From a virus: DNA of 64,000 nucleotides. The notes below the pieces were generated by a model that worked only from the letters and a program-made list of their open reading frames with translations, did no database searches and was not told the DNA's origin. The position numbers were made by a program, and so were the translations under genes. Shown here piece after piece: positions 3,993 through 43,456 of this stretch (its first letter is position 1; each line of letters begins with the position of its first letter). The stretch spans positions 160,001 to 224,000 of IMG/VR virus record IMGVR_UViG_3300045988_155520; one strand, given 5' to 3'.

Positions 3993-6650
3993 TTATTCAT
4001 TATCGTTCACTAAATTATCCAAAGAAGATATCATCTTATCAAATTCTTCATTAATCAATAAAGATTTATCATAGATATTTGCTCTTTCATAAGAAATTTC
4101 TTCAGCCTTCTTTTCCTTTCTATCAATACAATTAAGATATTCTTCAAATAGTGTATCTAATTTTTTATCACTATTTTTCTTCATCGCCTTTAATGTATTT
4201 TCAGTAATAAGAGGTTTTTTCTTATTTACAGATTCCATTGGAGTGCCTCCTGATTCTGGACCGCTACTTCCTGGTGCTTCGCCTCCTGGAGGTGCACCAG
4301 CATCACCACCCATGTCTCCTGTAGGCATTGAACCTTCTTCTCCTCCAATATCACCCATATCATCAGACCCAGGTGCACCGAGTGAATCAAGACCTCCACC
4401 GAAGTCTCCTCCGCCACCCATAGAGCCACCTCCCATGCCACTATCAGGACCTCCTTGTTGTGGTTGGTCATCCATGTATTCTGCTCCTGGTTCTCCATAT
4501 ATTCTATCGACTGTATCAAATAAACCAGTACGCTTGATGATTTGAGTTGTCTTTTCAAGTTCTGCGGAAATACCTTTCTCAAGACGTATCTCTTCAAGAT
4601 TTTCTTTAATCTCTTTGTCAGACCACTTCATAATAGTCTTTAATGCCTTTGCTTGAGACATAACAGGAATACCACCACCAGGGTCTGAAACGGCATCTCT
4701 AACAGCAGTAATCTTCTTCTCTATATTATCAATCTCAAGTGACTCTGCTTGAGTTGATGGGTTATTCATTGTAAGTGAGAAATTAGTTAATTCATCACTA
4801 AAACCAAGTAAGAATAAGTGAATGGATGCAACCTTAGTTAACTCCATTAAGAACGCCTGCTGAACTCTATTAACTGTTCTTGTGAAACGTATATCCATTA
4901 AAGCAAGATTCTTTCCGTCACCAGCAGTCTCTTCAAAATTAAGGAATGTTTTAGGTATTCTCAATGCCGTCAAAACCTTATTCTGAACAAACTTGATATC
5001 ATCCATCGCTGTCAAATTCTGCGCTGCTGACAAGGTATCAATAGGTGTTGGCGCATTCTGGTCTCTTACAGGGATAAAGATATCTTGGTCTACACAGTTG
5101 CTAACAAAACATCCATTTTCACACCAAGTTTTATCGGAATTGATTGAACGTATAGCAAAGTTGTGTCTATCTTCTTCACTATTAGGACCTTGTACGGTCA
5201 TACAATACACATCGTCTCCACCTATGATATCAACTTTTCTTATAAAGCGTAATTTCATAACTTCTACAGGGTCTGATTCGTTTTTACTTGAATCATTAAG
5301 AGTTACTTTTCTATATGATTTAGAAGAAATATCTAATACTCTATCGTAATCAGTATCATCTCTGTAGAAAGGCATTACACTTTCACCCACACTAACTTCA
5401 TCTGCTCTCTTCTTAGAACCATCACGCATTATGAGTTCGTGTTCACCAGCTAAATCTAAATATGTATCATCATCTAATGTTATACGATATAATTTATCTG
5501 CAGTGTAGTTTTTACCACACCAAACAACTTTTCCTGGTACAATTTTATGAGTATCATCTTGTACAGAATATACAAAATTTTCTTCACCATTTTCATACTC
5601 TTTTGCAAGATTCTCTATTGTTATAGTGCGTCCATCCAGCAAAGGAATTGGCGTATCTTTATGAACTGGGAGAATATTCTTTCTCAAATCCACTTGACCT
5701 GTCATTGGGTCAATAATAGGCGTTCTCTTAAAGTTATTAGCAATTTCTTCAACGTAAGCTGGTACATCAGCATCGTCAATAGCACCTACAAATATCTTAT
5801 ATACACGTCTTTCAATAGAACGTTCCAGACGATAGATAAGCATCATATCTTCCATTAAACTAAGCATACGCCAATGTCTACGAGCTGAATTTAAATAAGA
5901 AACGCCATAAGGAAGATACATAGAATTTGTTAACAGTCTAAAATGTGCAATCTGCCAATCTCTAAATGGAACTTGCGACTGGCTATCATCTAACCAGACA
6001 AATTTAGTAGACATATCAGAATTGGTATCTGTATTATTAGCTGCAACAGTGGAATATCCTGTTGAATATGGATTAGTAATACCGTTTTCTATACGTTCAA
6101 CATTAAATACAGGTAAACGTTTCCATCCTTTAACACCTAACTTATGGTCTATATCCAGCATCATATAATCATTTCCATATTTACACATGCCACGTATAAC
6201 CATTTGTGCTGTTAATTGTAAATTTAAACGATTAGTAAATAAATCTTCAAGAATACTTTTAACTCTATCTGATTTAGAATATACATTTACTATATTTCCT
6301 GTATCTGAAGGTAAACAGCTTTCTTCTGAAACAATATCAAGTGCAGCGCCTATTTCTGGAAATGAATCCATCAAATCGGCATCACGATACATCAACTTAA
6401 CATTATTAAGTCCTGAATAGGCACTTACATTTAAATCAACGTTAGCTTTAACCCATCTATTTTCAAGATATTTATTTTGTTGTAATTCTAATTTTACTTT
6501 TTCATAATTATCTTTATCGTTGGTTTGGTATATAACACCATTACCAGACATATCATAGTTATTGATATGTCTTGCCATTGTGTCCTGTGTATTCCAGTTA
6601 CCAGTTATAGCTTTATCTAATTGTTGAAAAACAGTTAATTTATTGGCCAT
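3993..6650 (-). CDS. Portal protein (T4 gp20-type) with an inserted Hint/intein domain and a Gly/Asp-rich C-terminal extension
   Basis: 885 aa and adjacent to TerL. Carries the conserved portal core ...DQDIFIPVRD..PIDTLSAAQNLTAMDDIKFVQNKVLTALRIPKTFL. Intein blocks lie at aa 328/333-518. Confidence 0.8.
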   Translation of the reverse strand: MANKLTVFQQLDKAITGNWNTQDTMARHINNYDMSGNGVIYQTNDKDNYEKVKLELQQNKYLENRWVKANVDLNVSAYSGLNNVKLMYRDADLMDSFPEIGAALDIVSEESCLPSDTGNIVNVYSKSDRVKSILEDLFTNRLNLQLTAQMVIRGMCKYGNDYMMLDIDHKLGVKGWKRLPVFNVERIENGITNPYSTGYSTVAANNTDTNSDMSTKFVWLDDSQSQVPFRDWQIAHFRLLTNSMYLPYGVSYLNSARRHWRMLSLMEDMMLIYRLERSIERRVYKIFVGAIDDADVPAYVEEIANNFKRTPIIDPMTGQVDLRKNILPVHKDTPIPLLDGRTITIENLAKEYENGEENFVYSVQDDTHKIVPGKVVWCGKNYTADKLYRITLDDDTYLDLAGEHELIMRDGSKKRADEVSVGESVMPFYRDDTDYDRVLDISSKSYRKVTLNDSSKNESDPVEVMKLRFIRKVDIIGGDDVYCMTVQGPNSEEDRHNFAIRSINSDKTWCENGCFVSNCVDQDIFIPVRDQNAPTPIDTLSAAQNLTAMDDIKFVQNKVLTALRIPKTFLNFEETAGDGKNLALMDIRFTRTVNRVQQAFLMELTKVASIHLFLLGFSDELTNFSLTMNNPSTQAESLEIDNIEKKITAVRDAVSDPGGGIPVMSQAKALKTIMKWSDKEIKENLEEIRLEKGISAELEKTTQIIKRTGLFDTVDRIYGEPGAEYMDDQPQQGGPDSGMGGGSMGGGGDFGGGLDSLGAPGSDDMGDIGGEEGSMPTGDMGGDAGAPPGGEAPGSSGPESGGTPMESVNKKKPLITENTLKAMKKNSDKKLDTLFEEYLNCIDRKEKKAEEISYERANIYDKSLLINEEFDKMISSLDNLVNDNE
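5097..5669 (-). mobile_element. Mini-intein (Hint domain, about 186-191 aa, no homing-endonuclease domain) inside the portal gene
   Basis: Block A-like DTPIPLLDGRTITIENL, block B LAGEHELIMRDG, block F DDVYCMTVQG..HNFAI, block G NGCFVSN followed by Cys+1. The exteins rejoin as a portal motif. Confidence 0.7.
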
Positions 6651-6702: not shown

Positions 6703-8583
6703 TTATTTCATACCGCTAAATAACCACATATAAGTTCCGCCTATATGTTTATTCGGCTTTGATGATAAAGAATTACTATTCATCATAGGAAGACCAGATT
6801 TAGGTGTCACAGGTTGACTGTATCTTATAGCTGGTCTTCTATAGTTACTACCATTTGTCATTCTGTAAGAACTTAATATTGCTTCATCTTTACGTTTGGC
6901 AGCTTCTATTTTACTAAGAGAATACTGCATCACAAAGAGAGCCATTGCAAGACATGTAATTGTGTCATCATGTGCACCTTCCATGTGGTCCATACGTCCA
7001 GTTTCGCCTTTAAAAATCCATGTATCAAGTTCATTAATAACACGTGCAGAACGTATTTTAAATTCGTTGTTTCTAACAAGTCCTGCAAAGTTAGCAAGTA
7101 CAGGGTATCTATTTCCTTGGAAGTGAAAACCAGGCAATCTATTCATATAATTACCATCTGACATAGATTGATTTTGCATTGTGTATGTCTTCTGAGAAGA
7201 GTCATCATAATGTAGGTTAGTATAACCAAGGTTCAACATTGTTAAAATAGCAGCATCTCCTTGACCACCAGTACAATCTACTACAACATAAGCATTATTA
7301 TATTGCTTGGCATAATAAACCGCCATAGAACCAATATCGTCGCCTAACTTCTTTCCGACATATTCCATTACTTGTTCTATGATTGGTTGACCGTTTTCAT
7401 CACGTCCATCCATATCTATAACCTCTATAGCAGTTCTATCGGCAGACACACCTCGTGATGGGTCAATTCCTAATATATATCTATGACCAGGAATAGGTGC
7501 TTTCCAATACCAAGTATCATCAACCATTGGGTCTTTTAAATCTGGCAGTGGGTCTCTAACATTAATTCTATTCTGTAGTTCTACAAATTCACTTGCAACA
7601 ACGTTGTTAGCTGAACCAAGGAACGACACATCAAGCTCTTGGGCTATTTTCATAGAATCATTATTGAAAGATTGACACATTGTTTCATACCAAGGAGAAG
7701 TCGGCATCCATCCCTCTTGTTCCAATTTGCGCCATCTTTCTTCGTTATATTCTATTCTTCCTGTATCATCTAATATTTCCTCTACAATCCACTTTTTCTC
7801 TCCAGTTTCAGCATCTTTCTTATACCACTTCAAATGTCTGTTATAACGCAAATCTTGATACCATTTAAATTCAACTGCGTTATAGTTATTTTCATGGCTT
7901 AATGCTTGACGATAAGTATTGTAATATAATTCATCTTTACCATTAGGTGTTGAAACCATTATTATCTTTGATTTATCACCATAAGATGATGTGGCAGCAA
8001 CCGCTGAAGAATAAACGGCTGGACCATTCTCAATAAAGGCTGCCTCGTCAAAAATCAATATCGAAACAGCTGAGATACCACGTGCAGCATTTTCTCCAGA
8101 AGACCTTGCGTATACAGAACATCCATTGAATAATTGTAATTCTGATTTACTATTTTTGGTGAAAATATCTTTCTTATTTTTCTCTGATTTTGGGTCTGGA
8201 GAATAATATTCGTCACCCCAATACCATCGTGGAACTTGCATCAAAAACTCTCTAATTTTTGTAACCAATTGGTTTGCAAGGTCAAGTTTGTTACCAATAC
8301 ACAAAATAGTTTCTGGCTTATCAGAATCAGCAAGTGCAATTTGTGCACATATCCATGCCGAAGAAACTGTAGTAATACCTGCCTGACGGTGTTTAATGGC
8401 TATGGAAGCCTTATGGTCAGCAAGACTCTGTAAAAATGCTTTCTGTCTTGGGAATAATAGGAATTGTGATTTTTTACCAACATTAGCATTAAACGTTGAT
8501 AGGTATTTTTCTATAAAATAAATTCTCGATTTATCAGCATAACTTCTTGCGTATTCTTCAGCAATCGTTTGTATATCTATCAT
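6703..8583 (-). CDS. Terminase large subunit (T4 gp17-like)
   Basis: RQAGITT (Walker A-like), ILIFDEAAF (Walker B) and IIMVSTPNG (coupling motif) resemble gp17 RQLGKTT, IYIDECAF and TTTPNG as I recall them. 626 aa. Confidence 0.88.
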   Translation of the reverse strand: MIDIQTIAEEYARSYADKSRIYFIEKYLSTFNANVGKKSQFLLFPRQKAFLQSLADHKASIAIKHRQAGITTVSSAWICAQIALADSDKPETILCIGNKLDLANQLVTKIREFLMQVPRWYWGDEYYSPDPKSEKNKKDIFTKNSKSELQLFNGCSVYARSSGENAARGISAVSILIFDEAAFIENGPAVYSSAVAATSSYGDKSKIIMVSTPNGKDELYYNTYRQALSHENNYNAVEFKWYQDLRYNRHLKWYKKDAETGEKKWIVEEILDDTGRIEYNEERWRKLEQEGWMPTSPWYETMCQSFNNDSMKIAQELDVSFLGSANNVVASEFVELQNRINVRDPLPDLKDPMVDDTWYWKAPIPGHRYILGIDPSRGVSADRTAIEVIDMDGRDENGQPIIEQVMEYVGKKLGDDIGSMAVYYAKQYNNAYVVVDCTGGQGDAAILTMLNLGYTNLHYDDSSQKTYTMQNQSMSDGNYMNRLPGFHFQGNRYPVLANFAGLVRNNEFKIRSARVINELDTWIFKGETGRMDHMEGAHDDTITCLAMALFVMQYSLSKIEAAKRKDEAILSSYRMTNGSNYRRPAIRYSQPVTPKSGLPMMNSNSLSSKPNKHIGGTYMWLFSGMK

Positions 8584-14339: not shown

Positions 14340-14924
14340 CTATTTAGCGGTGCTTTTATTAAATGTAACTACTTCATTAGTAACAAAGTTTATATAGAAG
14401 TGAGATATATCTTCTAAATCTTTCATATAAGCTTTAAAAGCAATATCTTTCCGTCCCCATTTAGCTCGTTGATAAGGTACATAGCATTCTTGAGGTGTAT
14501 CGTAAACAATATTTTTCCCACTACTAATATATTCTTTATATTTGGTTTCAGCGAAATACGTTAATTGTTCTCGTTTTACAAAAAGAAGTTTATTATCTGT
14601 TTTAAAAACAATATAATCTTCTTCCCCATAAATCCATCCTGGCTTTCCACTGACATTCTGTATCTCTAACCAAGTTATACTATAATCTTTATTAGAGTCA
14701 GTTCTTTTATTCTTACGTGAATCTTTAACATCTACTCCATATCTTTTTCCATTAGGTGCATCCCACCAAAAATCAACATGCTTCTTTGTATCTTCTGTTA
14801 TTGTTGATTGATAGCATTTACCGCCTAATAATGTTTCAATCTTATCACGTGTAAATAAGTCAGCTTTCATACCCTCATCGAAACATCGTTTAGTTTCTTT
14901 TTTTACAACATAAGATACACTCAT
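14340..14924 (-). CDS. Hypothetical protein (194 aa); weak PD-(D/E)xK-like pattern
   Basis: ORF track. Pattern HVDFWWD...YGVDVKDSRK. 4-nt overlap with thyA. The nuclease idea is speculative. Confidence 0.65.
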   Translation of the reverse strand: MSVSYVVKKETKRCFDEGMKADLFTRDKIETLLGGKCYQSTITEDTKKHVDFWWDAPNGKRYGVDVKDSRKNKRTDSNKDYSITWLEIQNVSGKPGWIYGEEDYIVFKTDNKLLFVKREQLTYFAETKYKEYISSGKNIVYDTPQECYVPYQRAKWGRKDIAFKAYMKDLEDISHFYINFVTNEVVTFNKSTAK

Positions 14925-16000
14925 CCGACACTTAAAGGAAACTTAATTGAAGCATCTGGATGATAATTATAAATTAAGAAACTATCATATTTAAAATCAT
15001 CCATACTTCTTATTTCGCCTTGTATTCTGAGCTGTGGTAGAGTATTACTACCAGTACGTTTTAATTGCTCCTGTACGCCATTTAATTGGTTCTCATAGAT
15101 ATGACAATCACCGCCAATATAAACCAACTCATCTACGGTCATATTACAAACATGCGCAAACATGTGCGTTAACAAAGCTGCTGAACAAATATTATAAGGA
15201 CAACCCAAAGGTAAATCATTACTTCTAATATTCAACATGCAACTTAATTTATACTTTGGAATATCAATATAATTTAGAAATGTTTCCGTAACATCACATT
15301 GTTCACCTTCATTTAAACTTTCTTTATACAAATCTATACGTTCACCCAATGTAAGTTCTTTTGTATAGAATTGATACATTATATGACAAGGATATAACGC
15401 AGCTTCATCTACAGTATCTGGGTCATAACAAGTTAAAATAATACGTCTTGATGTAGGGTCATTCCTTAGTAGATTGACAAGTTCCCTAATTTGGTCTTTA
15501 CCAGAAGAACCAAAATGCCTCCAGTTCTTACCATACATAGCACCAAGGTCTCCATACTTATACTCTTTTTCTATCTTTTCATCATCAACACAACGTACAA
15601 CCCTAACTTTCTCTCCTGCTTTAACTTTCTCTAAAAACTCTTCTTTAGATATTCCAGATAAAATATGATAGCCCATTTTTACCATACGTTCGTTCATACA
15701 TTGGTCATTCTTAACAGCGATGTCGTTAAAATAACGAAACGCATCATCATTCCAAATATTAACACCATTATCTACAAGATATTTAATATTCGTAGAACCT
15801 GAAATAAACCAAAGTAACTCATGAATTATTCCTTTTGTGCTTACTTTTTTGGTTGTAAGTAAAGGTAGTCCATCTTTTAAATTAAAACGCATCATACGTC
15901 CAAAAACAGACTTTACAAGTCCACTACGTGTCTTACGTTCACTACCATTTTCTAAAACATCTCGAAGTAAATCAAGATATTGTTTATCAACATTATTCAT
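14921..16000 (-). CDS. thyA: Thymidylate synthase (ThyA family) with two large insertions
   Basis: Motifs IIHELLWF, SRRIIL, LYPCH (catalytic Cys-His), IRSND, PYNICS (Asn retained) and GGDCHIY. 359 aa versus about 264 in E. coli. Confidence 0.85.
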   Translation of the reverse strand: MNNVDKQYLDLLRDVLENGSERKTRSGLVKSVFGRMMRFNLKDGLPLLTTKKVSTKGIIHELLWFISGSTNIKYLVDNGVNIWNDDAFRYFNDIAVKNDQCMNERMVKMGYHILSGISKEEFLEKVKAGEKVRVVRCVDDEKIEKEYKYGDLGAMYGKNWRHFGSSGKDQIRELVNLLRNDPTSRRIILTCYDPDTVDEAALYPCHIMYQFYTKELTLGERIDLYKESLNEGEQCDVTETFLNYIDIPKYKLSCMLNIRSNDLPLGCPYNICSAALLTHMFAHVCNMTVDELVYIGGDCHIYENQLNGVQEQLKRTGSNTLPQLRIQGEIRSMDDFKYDSFLIYNYHPDASIKFPLSVG

Positions 16001-18007: not shown

Positions 18008-20488
18008 ATGGACGAAATAAGATTAATGTATAGCAAAGAATTGGATGAAGTTGTATTATATATGGAAACATCTATTCTTAATGAAATACCCTCCAAAGAG
18101 TTAACACCAGAACACTTCGTTCTTGCAATGTTAGATACAAAAAACTGTCATGCACACATGATTCTTGAAAGTTATTTAATGAACAACAACATAGTAAGTT
18201 TAAGAGAGTTGTTTGCTAACGCATTAACGGCATGTAATAACGAGATAAGTGGACTAACAAATAATATAATTGAAATTCCTTTCAGTAAAGAAATGAATAA
18301 ATTAATGGAAGATGCTGAGAATGAAAAAGAAATTACGAAAAGTAAAATTTTAGGTACTGAACATTTCCTTTTAGCATTACTAAATCCAGAATTGAATTTA
18401 AATAGCGGAAAAATTCTTAAAAGTGCTGGTATTGATTATAACAATATTTTGAGTAAATGTCAAAGCGAAACAAAAAATAGACATACTAAAAAACCGAAGA
18501 CTAAAAATAATAACATGAATATTCCTTCAAAAAGTGAAATTAATATTAAATCAGTTTCACCAAAAGATAATTTTATAAAGCAATATACTATCAATTTAAA
18601 TCAAATTATAAAAGATGGTAAAGTTGATAAAACAATCGGACGAGAAAAAGAACTTAAAATTATCATGCAGGTACTTTCAAGACGTAGAAAGAATAATGTA
18701 GTACTTGTAGGTAAAGGAGGTGTCGGAAAGACTTCAATTGTTTACGGTCTTGCAAAGTTAATTAACGAACATAAAGTACCAAGTGTATTAGACGGCAAAG
18801 AATTACTTCTACTCAATATTATGAGTATGGTATCGGGAACGAGTTTAAGAGGTATGTTTGAAGAACGAGTTAAAGGACTATTTGACGAATTGGAAAACAA
18901 TGACAAATATATCCTTGTTATTGACGATATGCAGATGGTACTTAAGAATGGTAATAAAGATAGAGATACAGACATTTCTGATAAAATTGGTAAGATTTTG
19001 GAAGACGGTAATGTTAGAGTCATAGGTACATTACCTTTTAAGGAATATCGTAATTGTGTTGAAAATAATACACAACTATCTCGTAAATTACAGAAAATTG
19101 TTATTGAACCAAACAATGCTTCTGAAACAATACAAATTATAAAAGAAAATAAAAAGTTTTACGAGGATTATCATAACACAATTTATAGTGATGAAATAAT
19201 CAAAAAAGCGGTTGAACTTTCTGAAAAGTATATAAACGACAGATGTTTGCCTGATTCTGCAATAGATGTGATTGACCTTGCTGGTGCTGGATTATGTCTA
19301 ACCAAAACGGAACCAGAAATGATTACTTCTACAAGAAGCCGTCTGCATGAGATTGCAAATGAAAAAAAGAAGTACATGAATAATGGTGAATGGGAACTTG
19401 TTGAAGTCTTAAATAAAGAAGAGAAGGCACTTAATCGTAAATTAACTGATTATAAGAGAGAACAAAAGAAAGATAATAAACATATAGTACCTATTACTGA
19501 AAATGATATTGCAAAAGTAATATCAGATATAACTGGAGTACCAGTAACCAAATTGTCAAGTAATGAGAAAACTAAAATCGCTCATATTGATAATATATTA
19601 AAGGAAAGTATTATAGGTCAAGATGAAGCCGTAGAAGCAATCTGTAAGGTTATTAAAAGAAATAAAGTAGGGCTTGGTGATAAAACAAAGACAATGTCAA
19701 ATATTCTTATGATGGGCCCTTCAGGTTGTGGTAAAACGTTGATTGCTAAGAAGTTAGCAGAAGAAATATTCGGTGATGAAAAATCATTAATACGCATTGA
19801 TATGTCTGAATATTCTGAGAAAAATTCAATTTCAAAACTTACAGGTGCATCTCCTGGTTATGTAGGATATGAAAATGGTGGACAATTAACCGAGGCAATT
19901 AAAAATAAGCAACACTGTGTCTTACTTTTAGATGAAATTGAAAAAGCTGACCAAGAAGTTTATAATCTGTTTTTACAATTATTCGATGATGGTAGATTAA
20001 CAGACTCATCTGGGCAACTTGTTAATTTTAAGAACGTTATTGTTTTAATGACATCAAATATCGGTGCTAAGCAAGCATCTGAGTTTGGAAAAAGCATTGG
20101 CTTTTCTACAAATGTTGGTAATAATAAGAAAGCCATCATTGAAAAAGAAATGAAAAGTAAATTTACACCAGAATTTCTTAATAGAATTGACCAAATTGTT
20201 TACTTTAATAGTTTAACAGATGATAACCTCAAAGGTATTACTGAATTAGAAATAAAGAAGTTCTCCAATAGAGTTAAACAAGCTGGTTATAATATAACAT
20301 ATACACCAAAGGTTGTTGATTTCATCTATCAAAAAGCAGTAAAACAGAAAGAGTATGGCGCTCGCCCAATTATTCGATTTGTACAAAACGAACTTGAAGA
20401 TAAGTTGACAGATGTAATCTTACTTGGGGATTATGAAAATGAGCATACATTTAATTTTGATTTCGAAAACGAATTAATCATTTCGTAA
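18008..20488 (+). CDS. ClpA/ClpC-like two-ring AAA+ unfoldase
   Basis: Clp_N repeats (EHFVLAMLD, TEHFLLALLN). D1 has GKGGVGKTS and LVIDDMQ. D2 has GPSGCGKT, LLLDEIEKA and GARPIIR. The KSIGFS loop at 20096..20104 aligns with the ClpA KSIGLI ClpP-docking loop. Confidence 0.85.
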   Translation: MDEIRLMYSKELDEVVLYMETSILNEIPSKELTPEHFVLAMLDTKNCHAHMILESYLMNNNIVSLRELFANALTACNNEISGLTNNIIEIPFSKEMNKLMEDAENEKEITKSKILGTEHFLLALLNPELNLNSGKILKSAGIDYNNILSKCQSETKNRHTKKPKTKNNNMNIPSKSEINIKSVSPKDNFIKQYTINLNQIIKDGKVDKTIGREKELKIIMQVLSRRRKNNVVLVGKGGVGKTSIVYGLAKLINEHKVPSVLDGKELLLLNIMSMVSGTSLRGMFEERVKGLFDELENNDKYILVIDDMQMVLKNGNKDRDTDISDKIGKILEDGNVRVIGTLPFKEYRNCVENNTQLSRKLQKIVIEPNNASETIQIIKENKKFYEDYHNTIYSDEIIKKAVELSEKYINDRCLPDSAIDVIDLAGAGLCLTKTEPEMITSTRSRLHEIANEKKKYMNNGEWELVEVLNKEEKALNRKLTDYKREQKKDNKHIVPITENDIAKVISDITGVPVTKLSSNEKTKIAHIDNILKESIIGQDEAVEAICKVIKRNKVGLGDKTKTMSNILMMGPSGCGKTLIAKKLAEEIFGDEKSLIRIDMSEYSEKNSISKLTGASPGYVGYENGGQLTEAIKNKQHCVLLLDEIEKADQEVYNLFLQLFDDGRLTDSSGQLVNFKNVIVLMTSNIGAKQASEFGKSIGFSTNVGNNKKAIIEKEMKSKFTPEFLNRIDQIVYFNSLTDDNLKGITELEIKKFSNRVKQAGYNITYTPKVVDFIYQKAVKQKEYGARPIIRFVQNELEDKLTDVILLGDYENEHTFNFDFENELIIS

Positions 20489-24026: not shown

Positions 24027-25346
24027 ATGGAAACATTTGAAAATATTAGAAAAGAGAGTAGATTATTATTTGAATACGTTAGAGGTAGTCATCTTTATGG
24101 ATTGAATAATGAAGACTCAGATTTAGATACTGGTGGATTGTTTATCTGTAATCCATCAGATTTAACAGGACTTGGACTTAATTATTCTCCACAGGTTGCA
24201 GATAGTAGAAATGACACAACGTGGTATGAATTAGGCAAGTATTTTCAAATGCTTCTTAAATCAAATGCAACTGTGCTTGAAACTCTGTTTATACCAGAGG
24301 ATAAAATGATTTTAAAGCCATCCCCTGTTCTTGATGAGTTATTTGCAAATAAAGATAAATTCATTACCAAGCAGTGTTTTAAACCTTTCGTTGCTTATTC
24401 TTTAGAACAAATTAGAAAAGCACGTGGACTTAATAAGAAGATTGTTAATCCAGTTACCAAGCGTTTAAAGCCAATGGATTTCTGTTATACATTCAAAGAC
24501 CAAGGTAGTACTAAAATGGAATATTGGCTGGAATATAGAGGTATGAAACAGGAATATTGTGGTCTTGTTAAAATACCTAATATGGAGGGTATCTATGGCG
24601 TTTATTACGACTGGGGACAACACTTTCAAAGGGAAGGAGTTGAAGACAAAAATTTCGAGGGTTGTTATATACGTCTATTTAACACAAAAGATATTATTAC
24701 ACGTTTAAAGGAAGCACAAGCTAATAATAATCAAGCAGGTATAGAAATAGAAACCCGTCTTCTTAAACGCTCTTATATGCAAAATATGGCTCAGTTTATC
24801 ATGAACTATACCAATATTGACGATTGGGATGATTTCCTGTGGTGGTTTCGTGTAAATCAAACACCTAAAGGATATAAAGGCATTGTGCGAGAAAATTCAA
24901 ATGAAATGGTCCTATCACCAGTAGCTAAGGGAGAGAAACCAATATGCTACATGTCTTTCAATTCTAACGGATATTCAGCTCATTGTGCAGACTATAAACA
25001 TTATAAAGATTGGGAAGAAAAGCGTAACGAGAAGAGATATCAATCCAATCTTACAAAGAACTATGATTCTAAAAATATGATGCATAGTTTCCGTTTAATT
25101 CAAATGGGTCTTGAAATTGCAAGTGGAGAAGGGGTAAATCTTGACAGAAATAAGATTGGAGATAGAGATTTGCTTATGAATATTAGAAATCATAAATATG
25201 AGTATGATGAACTTATGGATATGATTGATAAAAAGAAAGCAGAAATGGACAAAGCAATGAAAAATTCTACTCTTCCAGAAACTATAGATGTACAAATGGT
25301 CGAAGATATTCTGCAAAATATCAGAAAGAAACAAATGATTGTATAG
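24027..25346 (+). CDS. Pol-beta-type nucleotidyltransferase of the RlaP-like (PF10127-like) kind
   Basis: The N-terminal LFEYVRGSHLYGLNNEDSDLDTGGLF matches the GSxxYG...DSDxD signature as I recall it. Confidence 0.55.
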   Translation: METFENIRKESRLLFEYVRGSHLYGLNNEDSDLDTGGLFICNPSDLTGLGLNYSPQVADSRNDTTWYELGKYFQMLLKSNATVLETLFIPEDKMILKPSPVLDELFANKDKFITKQCFKPFVAYSLEQIRKARGLNKKIVNPVTKRLKPMDFCYTFKDQGSTKMEYWLEYRGMKQEYCGLVKIPNMEGIYGVYYDWGQHFQREGVEDKNFEGCYIRLFNTKDIITRLKEAQANNNQAGIEIETRLLKRSYMQNMAQFIMNYTNIDDWDDFLWWFRVNQTPKGYKGIVRENSNEMVLSPVAKGEKPICYMSFNSNGYSAHCADYKHYKDWEEKRNEKRYQSNLTKNYDSKNMMHSFRLIQMGLEIASGEGVNLDRNKIGDRDLLMNIRNHKYEYDELMDMIDKKKAEMDKAMKNSTLPETIDVQMVEDILQNIRKKQMIV

Positions 25347-41392: not shown

Positions 41393-43456
41393 ATGAAACA
41401 AGAAAATAAAATATATAAAGAAATAGACGGTGTTAAATATGAAGTAAGAGATAATAAATACTTTTACGATGGTGACTTGAATATAGATAAAACAAATAAT
41501 GGTTATCTACCAGATAATTTAACTATATCAGGACATTTATATGCAGATAATTATGACAAAAATTTAGAACTCCCTAAAAACTTGACAGTTGGAGAAGATT
41601 TAAACTTGTATAATACACCAATAAAAACTTTACCGTCAGGTTTAATTGTAGGTGGAGATTTAGATGCAGACAATTGTACAATGCTGAAAGTTATACCTGA
41701 TTCATTAATTGTTGGAGGTAATTTAACTCTAAGCAATTGTACCAATCTCGTAGAACTATTAATTACTAAAGTTGGGGGGATATTAGATGTTGAAAACACA
41801 AAAATTAAAAAACTGCCAGATAATCTTATCGTTGGAGATTCCCTTTGGCTTGGATATACAAATATAACCGCATTACCAAATAAAATAACAGTAGGACGCT
41901 CCATTGATTTAAACGAAACCCCAATTGAATATATACCAAATGATATCGTTATTGGAGAAAATCTTATATTAAACAAATGTAAAAATATTTACACATTACC
42001 TGATAATATTACAATAGGTAATGACCTGTTTATTGAACGTTCAAATATTAAGACCTTACCACAAAATTTAACGGTGATAGGTGATTTGTTCTTATACTAT
42101 TACCAGAATATAAAAACTTTACCAGATAATATAATCGTACACGGAAATGTTTTTGCGGATGATTCAAGTATTAATAATACCTATGTTAATAAAATTATAC
42201 CCGAGAATGTAATCCATAAATTAAATGATTTACATAATATGGTGATTATATGGGAAAGAAATAATATAACATATATAAAAATAGGAAAACTCTTTACTGT
42301 AATTGATTCAAAATACCAAAACGTTTATCATGCACACGTACTCGGTGATGATACAAAACTATATATCTTAACTGACGGAGAAAATCATTGGGCATACGGA
42401 AAAACTAAAGAAGAAGCATGGATAAAACTTATGTACTCTATCAAAAGAGACCATATCATATACTATCATGATATGAGAATGAACACCAAAATTACAATAG
42501 AAGATGCTTCAAGTATGTTTAAAATAATAACAAATATATTTCATCAAGATATGAATAAAATTGATAACCCATTTAGATTTATACAACAAAAATATATTAC
42601 ATTAAATGATTTATATACACTGCTGAAACTACAATTCGGAAATGATGTGGTGGATAAATATATTAATGCCATAAATTCAACAGAACAATGCGATTGTACA
42701 GCGAAATATAACGATAATATTAAAACACTAACTGCATTTAAACCAATCATCATTACTCTTAATGGTGTGGGATTCTATAAAAAATTAAATCAAAAAATAC
42801 AAAAGCCATTCGATTCTAAGTTTAATAAACTTATGAATGAAACGCTTATATATCTTCTCGAAAATCTACCATATACAAAAGTTGGATATACATGGAGATA
42901 TGAAATGAATATCATTATTAATATTCCAACATATTTTAATACAAATGCACTGTGGAAAAGAGATGTATCAAAAATACAAAGTATTGTAGCATCAATGGCA
43001 AGCACATTCTTTACAAGAGAATATCATGAACTTTTCCAAACAGAAAATAATACAATACTCTTTGAATTTGATTGCCAAACATGGAATACACCAACAGTAG
43101 AAGATGCATATAATTGGTTAGTGTATAGACAAGAAGAATGTATTGATAATAGCATAAAACGTTTCGCAAGATTCTTCTTAACAATTGGAGAAATGAAAGG
43201 GAAGACATCAGAAGAACTTATCAAATATCTCATAGAACATTATAATACAAATTGGAATCATGAGAAAGCAGATAATAAGTTCGGAAGAATATTCATAAAA
43301 GAAAAAGTGATTCAATTCGATATAGATGAAAAAACAAATGAACAAAAAGTATATGGAAAAGAAGAATGGGAAAGATTATCAGTATTCTTCTTCACATTAA
43401 AAGATGAGAAAATAAAAGAGATTATTATCAACGAAATGAATAAAACAGATGAATAA
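41393..43456 (+). CDS. LPxNL-repeat protein fused to a shared middle module and a C-terminal Thg1/TLP-like domain (687 aa), paralog 2
   Basis: Repeats at aa 38-250. Middle module IWERNNITYIKIG...LTDGENHWAYG. The C-terminal PIIITLNGVGFYKK..KPFDSKFNKLMNET..GYTWRYEMNIII..SKIQSIVASMAS..FDCQTWN..NWLVYRQEECIDNSI follows the Thg1-like family pattern. Confidence 0.7.
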   Translation: MKQENKIYKEIDGVKYEVRDNKYFYDGDLNIDKTNNGYLPDNLTISGHLYADNYDKNLELPKNLTVGEDLNLYNTPIKTLPSGLIVGGDLDADNCTMLKVIPDSLIVGGNLTLSNCTNLVELLITKVGGILDVENTKIKKLPDNLIVGDSLWLGYTNITALPNKITVGRSIDLNETPIEYIPNDIVIGENLILNKCKNIYTLPDNITIGNDLFIERSNIKTLPQNLTVIGDLFLYYYQNIKTLPDNIIVHGNVFADDSSINNTYVNKIIPENVIHKLNDLHNMVIIWERNNITYIKIGKLFTVIDSKYQNVYHAHVLGDDTKLYILTDGENHWAYGKTKEEAWIKLMYSIKRDHIIYYHDMRMNTKITIEDASSMFKIITNIFHQDMNKIDNPFRFIQQKYITLNDLYTLLKLQFGNDVVDKYINAINSTEQCDCTAKYNDNIKTLTAFKPIIITLNGVGFYKKLNQKIQKPFDSKFNKLMNETLIYLLENLPYTKVGYTWRYEMNIIINIPTYFNTNALWKRDVSKIQSIVASMASTFFTREYHELFQTENNTILFEFDCQTWNTPTVEDAYNWLVYRQEECIDNSIKRFARFFLTIGEMKGKTSEELIKYLIEHYNTNWNHEKADNKFGRIFIKEKVIQFDIDEKTNEQKVYGKEEWERLSVFFFTLKDEKIKEIIINEMNKTDE

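Follow-up and report, generated by a model that had tools for sequence, protein, structure and literature searches.

Does the domain that interrupts a T4-type portal gene in a viral genome splice itself out of the protein, and if it does, by which chemistry? The gene lies in the IMG/VR virus record IMGVR_UViG_3300045988_155520, of which positions 160,001 to 224,000 were analyzed; this stretch of 64,000 nucleotides is called the window below and all coordinates refer to it unless another sequence is named. The original prediction, made from the DNA letters and their reading frames, had placed a mini-intein with a class-3-like residue set at 5097-5669 and had left two ways to read it, namely a variant splicing mechanism or a non-splicing Hint domain that is retained in the virion protein. 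Our analysis showed that the insert is a genuine intein (Hint domain) by its fold, its boundaries and its residue set. It is probably a splicing-competent mini-intein in the clip domain of the portal, and the route it would follow is most likely that of the class 3 inteins.

Pfam Portal_T4 matches the product of the open reading frame (ORF), 885 amino acids (aa) in length, with an E value of 4e-76 and in two pieces, one on either side of the insert. The predicted coordinates and translation proved to be exact: on the minus strand, 5097-5669 encodes portal aa 328-518, PVHKDTPIPLLDGRTITIENL...NGCFVSN, and the element stands immediately upstream of a conserved portal motif as had been proposed, Cys519 being followed by VDQDIFIPV. 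In 36 intein-free portal alleles the sequence runs uninterrupted over this site (...DLRYNPL-SVDEDYFIP...; consensus ...RYNPL-[S/T/N/D..]VDEDYFIP), and the predicted spliced junction, ...DLRKNIL-CVDQDIFIPV..., agrees with that consensus. Intein-free alleles are numerous among the metagenomic relatives and the best 150 representatives of the profile search described below. In addition, an element starting with PV[HWR]K..IPLLDGR is found at two more portal sites, W[VA]RNL/P...N/CKYGD and PGGQF/P...N/TGDI[ED]D (slashes outside brackets mark junctions). The window portal is intein-free at the former and reads ...IRGM-CKYGN... there. At all three sites the Pro belongs to the insert and not to the extein. 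Because the intein-free alleles and the two further sites place the Pro in the insert, the intein runs from Pro328 to Asn518 with Cys519 as the +1 residue, and these alignments fix both boundaries exactly and independently of any profile. The GC content is uninformative (intein 0.335, exteins 0.32 and 0.37).

The spliced portal sequence aligns to the T4 gp20 structures 3JA7 and 6UZC with an E value of 1e-21. The junction Leu327/Cys519 corresponds to Met328/Ser329 of T4 gp20 in the clip domain, and Cys519 is situated nine residues before Arg338 of the inner clip loop (domain and loop residue numbers from PMC4493910). The clip domain binds the terminase and the neck proteins, while the inner clip loop lines the DNA channel (PMC4493910). 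The neighboring ORF, 6703..8583, encodes a T4-type large terminase.

Profile alignment to intein models, which had been named as a check, scored the excised segment as a Hint/intein domain. In detail, it reached 36.3 bits with Pfam Intein_splicing (PF14890; gathering cut-off 35.8, E value 5.9e-9) and 31.7 bits with TIGR01445 intein_Nterm (cut-off 24.5), and both matches are thus above the curated cut-offs. Position 2 of the TIGR01445 profile falls on aa 329, and position 1 is therefore Pro328. The match to TIGR01443 covers 40 protein residues against 24 profile positions and points to an insertion between blocks F and G, where two strands, at residues 182-188 and 194-202, are seen in the structural model. 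All of the blocks quoted earlier (A, B, F and G) were found within portal aa 328-518. A single-sequence search of the PDB with the intein gave a marginal match alone, to Pab PolC (E value 0.62). For a usable AlphaFold2 model an alignment of 27 trimmed mini-inteins was needed, which gave a predicted local distance difference test score (pLDDT) of 83.5 and a predicted TM-score of 0.79; a shallow mixed alignment had given a pLDDT of 49.6. Compared with solved inteins by Foldseek, this model showed a probability of 1.00 and target-normalised TM-scores of 0.80-0.87. Poor order in the model is confined to about aa 430-470.

The earlier view that residue 1 is not a nucleophile therefore held for Pro328, and the alternative, Thr333, had to be dropped. 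Thr333 is position 6 of block A, and a register shifted to it is ruled out by the TIGR01445 register, by the intein-free alleles and by the two other insertion sites. No other register fits, the three insertion sites give the same boundary, and a class 1 assignment fails on Pro328, the acyl shift of class 1 inteins being impossible for Pro at residue 1. What identifies the insert as an intein is the Hint fold with its four blocks, the in-frame insertion for which intein-free alleles exist, and the Asn518/Cys519 junction, in which Asn518 (codon 5097-5099) occupies G:7 and Cys519 (codon 5094-5096) is the +1 residue. Two further cysteines of the window intein, Cys510 and Cys514, lie close to the C-terminal junction. 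The features of the gene and of the insert are listed in the table.

Table. Features of the portal gene and its mini-intein, in window coordinates
Feature	Positions	Strand	Evidence and remarks
Portal gene (T4 gp20 type)	3993..6650	-	ORF; Pfam Portal_T4; precursor 885 aa, 694 aa once spliced
N-extein, aa 1-327, end ...GQVDLRKNIL	5670..6650	-	Translation; Leu327 aligns with T4 gp20 Met328, clip domain
Mini-intein, aa 328-518, 191 aa; Hint splicing domain, no homing endonuclease	5097..5669	-	Profiles, 27-member alignment, AlphaFold2, Foldseek
Block A, PVHKDTPIPLLDGRTITIENL (also quoted as DTPIPLLDGRTITIENL)	5607..5669	-	Pro328 is intein residue 1, codon 5667-5669
Trp377-Cys378 (VVWCG motif)	5517..5522	-	27-member alignment: W377 invariant, C378 >90% conserved
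Block B, TYLDLAGEHELIMRDG, including LAGEHELIM	5418..5465	-	B:7 Ala401; B:10 His404 (codon 5439-5441); B:12 Leu406, not Trp
Linker, aa 430-470	5241..5363	-	pLDDT 52-57, poorly ordered; remnant of the place where relatives carry HNH endonuclease and DNA-binding modules
Block F, DDVYCMTVQGPNSEEDRHNFA, DDVYC483MTVQG...H496NF	5154..5216	-	Cys483 is F:4, codon 5202-5204; predicted initiating nucleophile
12-residue segment between blocks F and G, IRSINSDKTWCE	5118..5153	-	Modelled as part of a beta-hairpin
Block G plus +1, NGCFVSN/C	5094..5117	-	G:5 Val516, not Thr; G:6 Ser517, not His
C-extein, aa 519-885, start CVDQDIFIPVR	3993..5096	-	Cys519 aligns with T4 gp20 Ser329

A profile search of 1.84 billion representative proteins, clustered at 50% identity, returned 3,480 at E<=1e-3 and 293 at E<=1e-30, and all clade counts given here come from the best 150 of the 3,480 representatives. 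Nearly all of these are T4-type portals of great length (as much as 2,930 aa), with several inteins apiece. Intein junctions were parsed with a local hidden Markov model (HMM). Loose C-terminal pairing misplaces about 10 C-termini, and a strict-pairing set (n=109, window included) was used for all statistics on the +1 residue and the terminal Asn. About 10 apparent non-nucleophile +1 residues seen in the loose pairing were discarded as extrapolation artefacts, where the HMM alignment ended early.

The first residue at 287 intein N-junctions in these portals is Pro in 153 cases and Cys in 130. The inteins that start with Pro (Pro1) carry Cys at F:4, in the motif DVYCM, without exception (109/109 strictly paired, 137/137 loosely paired). 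The Cys1 inteins of the same portals have Asp in 80, Thr in 20, Cys in 14 and Asn in 7 cases at this position and mostly end with His-Asn. His at B:10 is found in 137/137 Pro1 inteins. Among the strictly paired ones the last residue is Asn in 107/109, with one Gln and one Lys, and the +1 residue is Ser, Thr or Cys in 109/109. In detail, 67 inteins occupy the window's site (Ser 56, Thr 6, Cys 5), a second site holds 8 (all Thr) and a third 34 (all Cys). The covariation of Pro1 with Cys F:4 backs the class-3-like character that had been assigned to the residue set, and the Cys at F:4 and the penultimate Ser, both noted before, were verified in the translation as Cys483 and Ser517. An alignment of 27 diverse mini-inteins gave the same picture, with P328, L337, W377, H404, A416, C483 and H496-N497-F498 invariant and C378, D480-V481-Y482, M484, G513 and N518 conserved in more than 90%.

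Three residues that bear on the class of the intein were thus found: a non-nucleophile at position 1 (Pro328), Cys at F:4 (Cys483) and His at B:10 (His404). Class 3 inteins have been defined operationally by the absence of Cys at position 1 together with a Cys at C2:4, and of 1,701 such inteins in nr 6.1% deviate at Trp B:12 and 4.6% at Thr G:5 (PMC7891396). Their experimentally characterised prototype, the 'DnaB' intein of mycobacteriophage Bethlehem, has Pro1, depends absolutely on Cys F:4 and splices efficiently (PMC2807308). Nothing is unusual about Pro as residue 1 of a class 3 intein, since the prototype has it as well, and we favor class-3-type splicing because Pro1 with Cys F:4 is the configuration of this prototype.

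By this route the thiol of Cys483, assisted by His404, would attack the Leu327-Pro328 bond and form a branched thioester on the intein; the N-extein would then move to the side chain of Cys519, the cyclisation of Asn518 would free the intein, and an S-to-N acyl shift would establish the Leu327-Cys519 peptide bond. The expected products are a portal of ~694 aa, recognisable by the tryptic junction peptide NILCVDQDIFIPVR, and a free intein of ~22 kDa. We infer from the sequence comparisons that Cys483 and not Cys519 makes the first attack. The converse is a class 2-type reaction, in which Cys519 would attack the Leu327-Pro328 bond directly as in the KlbA inteins with Ala1, leaving Cys483 a supporting or structural role. 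The window copy, with its Cys+1 and without an N-terminal nucleophile, would be suited to such a reaction; moreover, the Trp and Thr of class 3 are missing, and canonical class 3 inteins are more distant from the clade in sequence than those of class 1/2 type. However, the F:4 Cys is invariant throughout the clade while the +1 residue varies between Ser, Thr and Cys, with Ser in most members. As a mechanism driven by the +1 residue would not require an invariant Cys at F:4, we regard the class 2-type reaction as rather unlikely.

Several observations weigh against the class 3 assignment. Position B:12 is Leu406 and not Trp, in agreement with the earlier remark that the class 3 Trp is not evident in block B, G:5 is Val516 and not Thr, and the penultimate residue is Ser517 instead of His. 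Mutation of the Trp at B:12 impairs or blocks splicing in the canonical class 3 inteins that have been tested (PMC2807308, PMC5222942). The Cys+1 of the window copy makes the direct class 2-type attack chemically possible. The assignment to class 3 is drawn from positional equivalence within the Hint fold and not from close homology, as the clade has no significant sequence similarity to canonical class 3 inteins: the Pro1 profile matched no class 3 chain in the PDB at E<10, the Bethlehem (MP-Be) intein, taken for comparison from gp11 (L022 7260-9971), scored -0.9 bits on it, and hhalign with the Bethlehem intein gave an E value of 0.056, though Pro1 and His B:10 paired with their counterparts.

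The deviating positions are not peculiar to the window copy. Over the Pro1 clade B:12 is Phe in 99, Tyr in 11, Val in 10, Ile in 9, Trp in 6 and Leu in 2 inteins; G:5 is Val in 80, Leu in 33, Ile in 11 and Thr in 2; and G:6 is Lys in 56, Ser in 22 and His once, with other residues in the rest. Cys378, which may have a structural, redox or catalytic supporting role, covaries with the Pro1 clade: the motif 'WC' is present in 128/137 Pro1 inteins but in just 7 of ~121 Cys1 relatives, most of which show 'WA' instead. The idea that Trp377 is a moved stand-in for the class 3 Trp was not supported, as the Cys1 relatives have the same Trp in the form xWAG.

Whether the insert splices at all can be judged from the residue that follows it. 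At the position that corresponds to +1, the 36 intein-free alleles have Ser in 19 cases, Thr in 3, Asn in 7, Asp in 3, Ala in 2, Gly in 1 and Gln in 1. Ser, Thr or Cys is thus present in 22/36 intein-free and in 67/67 intein-bearing alleles at the window's site (Fisher p = 5.5e-8), a constraint that, judging by these alleles, is explained by ligation chemistry alone. The opposite reading, a Hint domain that stays in the mature portal or that cuts without ligation in the manner of bacterial intein-like (BIL) domains, could appeal to the non-canonical residue set, to the lack of a penultimate His and to the BIL-domain structures among the fold matches (e.g. 6y75 and 2lwy). Against it stand the +1 nucleophile, which is strictly kept with the insert alone, and the conserved C-terminal Asn, both of which are needed for ligation only. 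In addition, the boundaries are exact at three portal sites, presence and absence vary among related portals, and the full-length relatives that bear an HNH endonuclease mark a mobile intein and not a domesticated domain. Twelve unspliced domains of 191 aa, placed beside the inner clip loop, would also occupy the interface of terminase, neck and DNA channel. From this we infer that the portal is made as a precursor which must splice to function. In view of the +1 pattern, the conserved Asn and block B His, the ratio of non-synonymous to synonymous substitution rates (dN/dS) and the position in the clip domain, the retained non-splicing domain that had been offered as a fallback is decidedly unlikely.

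Against IMG/VR relatives of 70-99% identity, dN/dS is 0.03-0.18 for the intein and 0.005-0.08 for the exteins, and the intein is under purifying selection. This value also argues against a third explanation, that of an inactive intein decaying in a defective or misassembled genome. Such an explanation would fit the loss of the homing endonuclease and the metagenomic origin of the sequence, but the reading frame is intact, all clade-invariant residues are present, the identical 885-aa protein occurs on 12 contigs of up to 313 kb, and relatives of 94-99% identity are found in several IMG/VR contigs. A decaying intein is therefore very improbable indeed.

The probably splicing-competent mini-intein appears to descend from a mobile element. 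With 191 aa it has no room for an endonuclease, as had been concluded from its length of about 190 aa. The full-length relatives P0078, P0067 and P0079 are longer by ~190-340 residues, which include an HNH motif and lie where the window copy has its disordered 41-residue linker, and this linker keeps a short relic, YDRVLDISSKSY, that is similar to YEKVYNPNSGKY of the full-length relatives. The HNH homing endonuclease, present in many relatives, has been lost from the window copy, which would therefore persist because a portal from which the insert is not spliced out has no use. Both forms are found in close relatives, since two IMG/VR portals, one with the mini form (L008) and one with the full-length HNH form (L012), have near-identical exteins. 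Between the window and L008 the synonymous divergence (dS) is 0.21 for the intein and 0.83 for the portal exteins. As the dS of the intein is far lower than that of the exteins, this suggests a recent lateral movement of the intein between phage lineages, although the window copy is without an endonuclease.

Pro1 and Cys1 inteins are intermixed at about eight or more distinct sites across the related metagenomic portals. P0020 (2,818 aa, at least 6 intein N-junctions), P0022 (2,930 aa) and others are metagenomic T4-type portals with many inteins each. The combination of Pro1 and Cys F:4 was also seen in a mini-intein outside the portals, in a phage protein on an 86-kb contig (P0011; L002 6001-7715, Logan SRR21686409). 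There the intein is followed by just six C-extein residues (SGYGPY) and then by a free-standing GIY-YIG/NUMOD3 endonuclease gene, an arrangement that may reflect C-terminal processing or else a host gene that was disrupted or fractured. In the 1,040-aa portal of the same contig, the channel-loop site is occupied by a full-length Pro1 intein that includes HNH.

How the Pro1 inteins relate to the known classes was approached with the same profile. In the PDB it matched class 1 inteins (NrdJ-1 with an E value of 3e-7, Pab PolC with 3.7e-7, and DnaE inteins), and in the fold search the class 3 structures 6riy, 6rix and 6bs8 rank 44-50, after many class 1 mini-inteins. The class-1-type portal inteins score 40-150 bits on the Pro1 profile, and the medians are 91 bits for Cys1/Asp-F4 portal inteins, 126 for Cys1/Cys-F4 and 241 for the Pro1 members themselves. 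Common descent with canonical class 3 found no support in the comparison, which covered one canonical sequence and the PDB set. In a neighbor-joining tree of 282 N-terminal halves, which carries no support values, 148/148 Pro1 inteins lie together on the same side of one split. The mean identity of these halves is 55% within the Pro1 clade and 40-43% (up to ~55%) between Pro1 inteins and their nearest Cys1 relatives.

At the window's very insertion site there are also inteins that have both Cys1 and Cys F:4 (RYNPM/C...DTGCITV...HN/SVEED), for example P0027 aa 1076-1468, P0031 aa 1105-1500 and P0058 aa 1186-1574. Another group, DEMLS/C...TPDHKWM...DTWCMEV...ISN/S, has Cys1 with both Trp B:12 and Cys F:4. 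The Cys1/Cys-F:4 inteins may be intermediates, equipped with two nucleophiles, between class 1 and class 3, and the sequence relationships suggest that class-3-type chemistry arose within the class-1-type radiation. We propose tentatively, as a possibility that we rate somewhat below an even chance, that the Pro1/Cys-F:4 portal clade is a monophyletic and undescribed group which derives from class-1-type portal inteins apart from the class 3 inteins with the WCT triplet, with the Cys1/Cys-F:4 inteins as surviving intermediates. The path would lead from Cys1/Asp-F4 over Cys1/Cys-F4 to Pro1/Cys-F4. If true, class 3 splicing chemistry would have originated a second time, by convergence. The canonical class 3 lineage is reportedly monophyletic, and a transition from class 1 to class 3 has been claimed to be improbable (PMC7664689), a claim on which the pattern among the portal inteins bears.

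The lineage of Pro1/Cys-F:4 portal inteins appears to be undescribed. In the literature searched no description of class-3-type inteins in T4-type portals was found; taken singly, inteins in phage portals, Pro1 class 3 inteins and class 3 triplets of atypical composition had been known before. A tblastn search with the intein of GenBank phage records (INPHARED, August 2025) recovered no clade member and gave weak matches only, which concern Bacillus phage SP-15 and a single huge-phage contig whose portal intein is of the Cys1 type and sits at another site. On LR756508.1 (L001), the 484-kb sequence of an uncultured phage, a Cys1 intein is found in 144512-149545 at a further portal site, ...LGYEKELEGK/CLHPDT.... 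Under the standard code the portal region has no long ORF there, an upstream ORF ends with VHN/C, which is a canonical intein C-terminus, and the phage may use an alternative genetic code.

The 12 contigs with the identical portal come from JGI/IMG, Logan and ENA, where the protein is annotated as 'hypothetical protein' only, and include human oral metagenome assemblies (ENA ERZ27318743; ERZ989715, PRJEB6997). On these grounds the window is assigned to a jumbo phage from the human mouth. By portal, the closest isolated relatives, at ~35% identity, are Microcystis phage Mel-JY01 and the Flavobacterium 'immuto' phages. Near its C-terminus the window portal contains a long acidic low-complexity stretch rich in Gly, Asp, Met and Pro (GGPDSGMGGGSMGGGGDFGGG..., aa ~685-805, about 4230-4600 on the minus strand), where the local GC content is ~0.5 compared with ~0.33 elsewhere; the ORFs 4226-4597 and 4243-4545, which overlap it in the other strand or other frames, are probably composition artefacts.

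Elsewhere in the window four genes are unusual for a phage: a thymidylate synthase ~90 aa longer than the Pfam model (14921-16000, minus strand), an 826-aa ClpB-like double AAA+ chaperone (18008-20488, plus strand), an RlaP-family nucleotidyltransferase (24027-25346, plus strand) and a protein of 687 aa that bears a Thg1 (tRNA-His guanylyltransferase) domain (41393-43456, plus strand). Neither tRNA genes nor a second intein turned up in the ten large window ORFs that were scanned.

More than 100 diverged natural sequences combine Pro1 and Cys F:4 without the Trp and Thr that are thought to support class 3 catalysis. As the clade stands beside class-1-type relatives, some of which have both candidate nucleophiles, the origin of class 3, whether by divergence from class 1 or separately, becomes testable by mutagenesis and phylogeny. 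With their compact size of 158-191 aa and a Ser, Thr or Cys at +1, such class 3 inteins would also be candidate tools for protein ligation, and the multi-intein portals show that the DNA-channel loops of T4-type portals are heavily targeted by homing elements.

Among the known systems, the Cys1 class 1 portal inteins are closest by sequence and fold. The LLDGR and xW[AC]G motifs are common to them and the window intein, and some are inserted at its very site. They differ from it by the Cys start, by F:4, which is mostly Asp (also Thr, Asn and, in 14, Cys), and by the usual His-Asn end. The class 1 mini-inteins Ssp DnaB, Npu DnaE and NrdJ-1 group with them as nearest relatives. The class 2 intein KlbA has a Hint fold and likewise no nucleophile at residue 1, where it has Ala, but it is without the F:4 Cys and depends on Cys+1. 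BIL domains also have the Hint fold and can lack standard junction residues; in contrast to the window intein they mainly cleave and are not mobile insertions at conserved sites. The strict +1 nucleophile, the presence/absence polymorphism at a conserved site and the HNH-bearing relatives do not fit a BIL domain.

The canonical class 3 inteins (Bethlehem gp11, Msm DnaB-1, Mle DnaB, MchDnaB1) share with the window intein Pro or another non-nucleophile at position 1, Cys F:4 and His B:10, the C-terminal Asn and the +1 nucleophile. The two successive branched intermediates are predicted for the window intein as well, and both kinds are phage-borne and inserted in an essential packaging-related protein. 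They differ in the WCT triplet, which in the window intein is LCV (Leu406, Cys483, Val516), in the endonuclease, which is HNH in the relatives of the window intein and LAGLIDADG in 82.5% of class 3 (PMC7891396), and in the host protein, a T4-type portal as opposed to a P-loop helicase, terminase or Cas4. Bvi IcmO, in 2016 described as the only class 3 intein known to have both Cys F:4 and Cys+1, resembles the window intein in this combination and still cannot take the class 2 route (PMC5222942); it differs by its complete WCT triplet and its bacterial host protein.

The split intein AceL NrdHF, an atypical class 3 intein validated by experiment, resembles the window intein in its residue set, with a non-nucleophile at residue 1, Cys F:4, no penultimate His, an aliphatic residue in place of Trp at B:12 (Met in AceL, Leu in the window) and an origin from a phage-like metagenomic contig. 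Unlike the window intein, AceL NrdHF has Thr at G:5, no His at F:13, a natural split and an association with a GIY-YIG endonuclease. In the window intein, which is contiguous, the F:13 His is retained as His496, G:5 is Val and the +1 residue is Cys. With Met at B:12 and both His missing, AceL NrdHF still follows the class 3 route and splices in minutes (PMC7891396), and class 3 chemistry is therefore possible without the canonical Trp.

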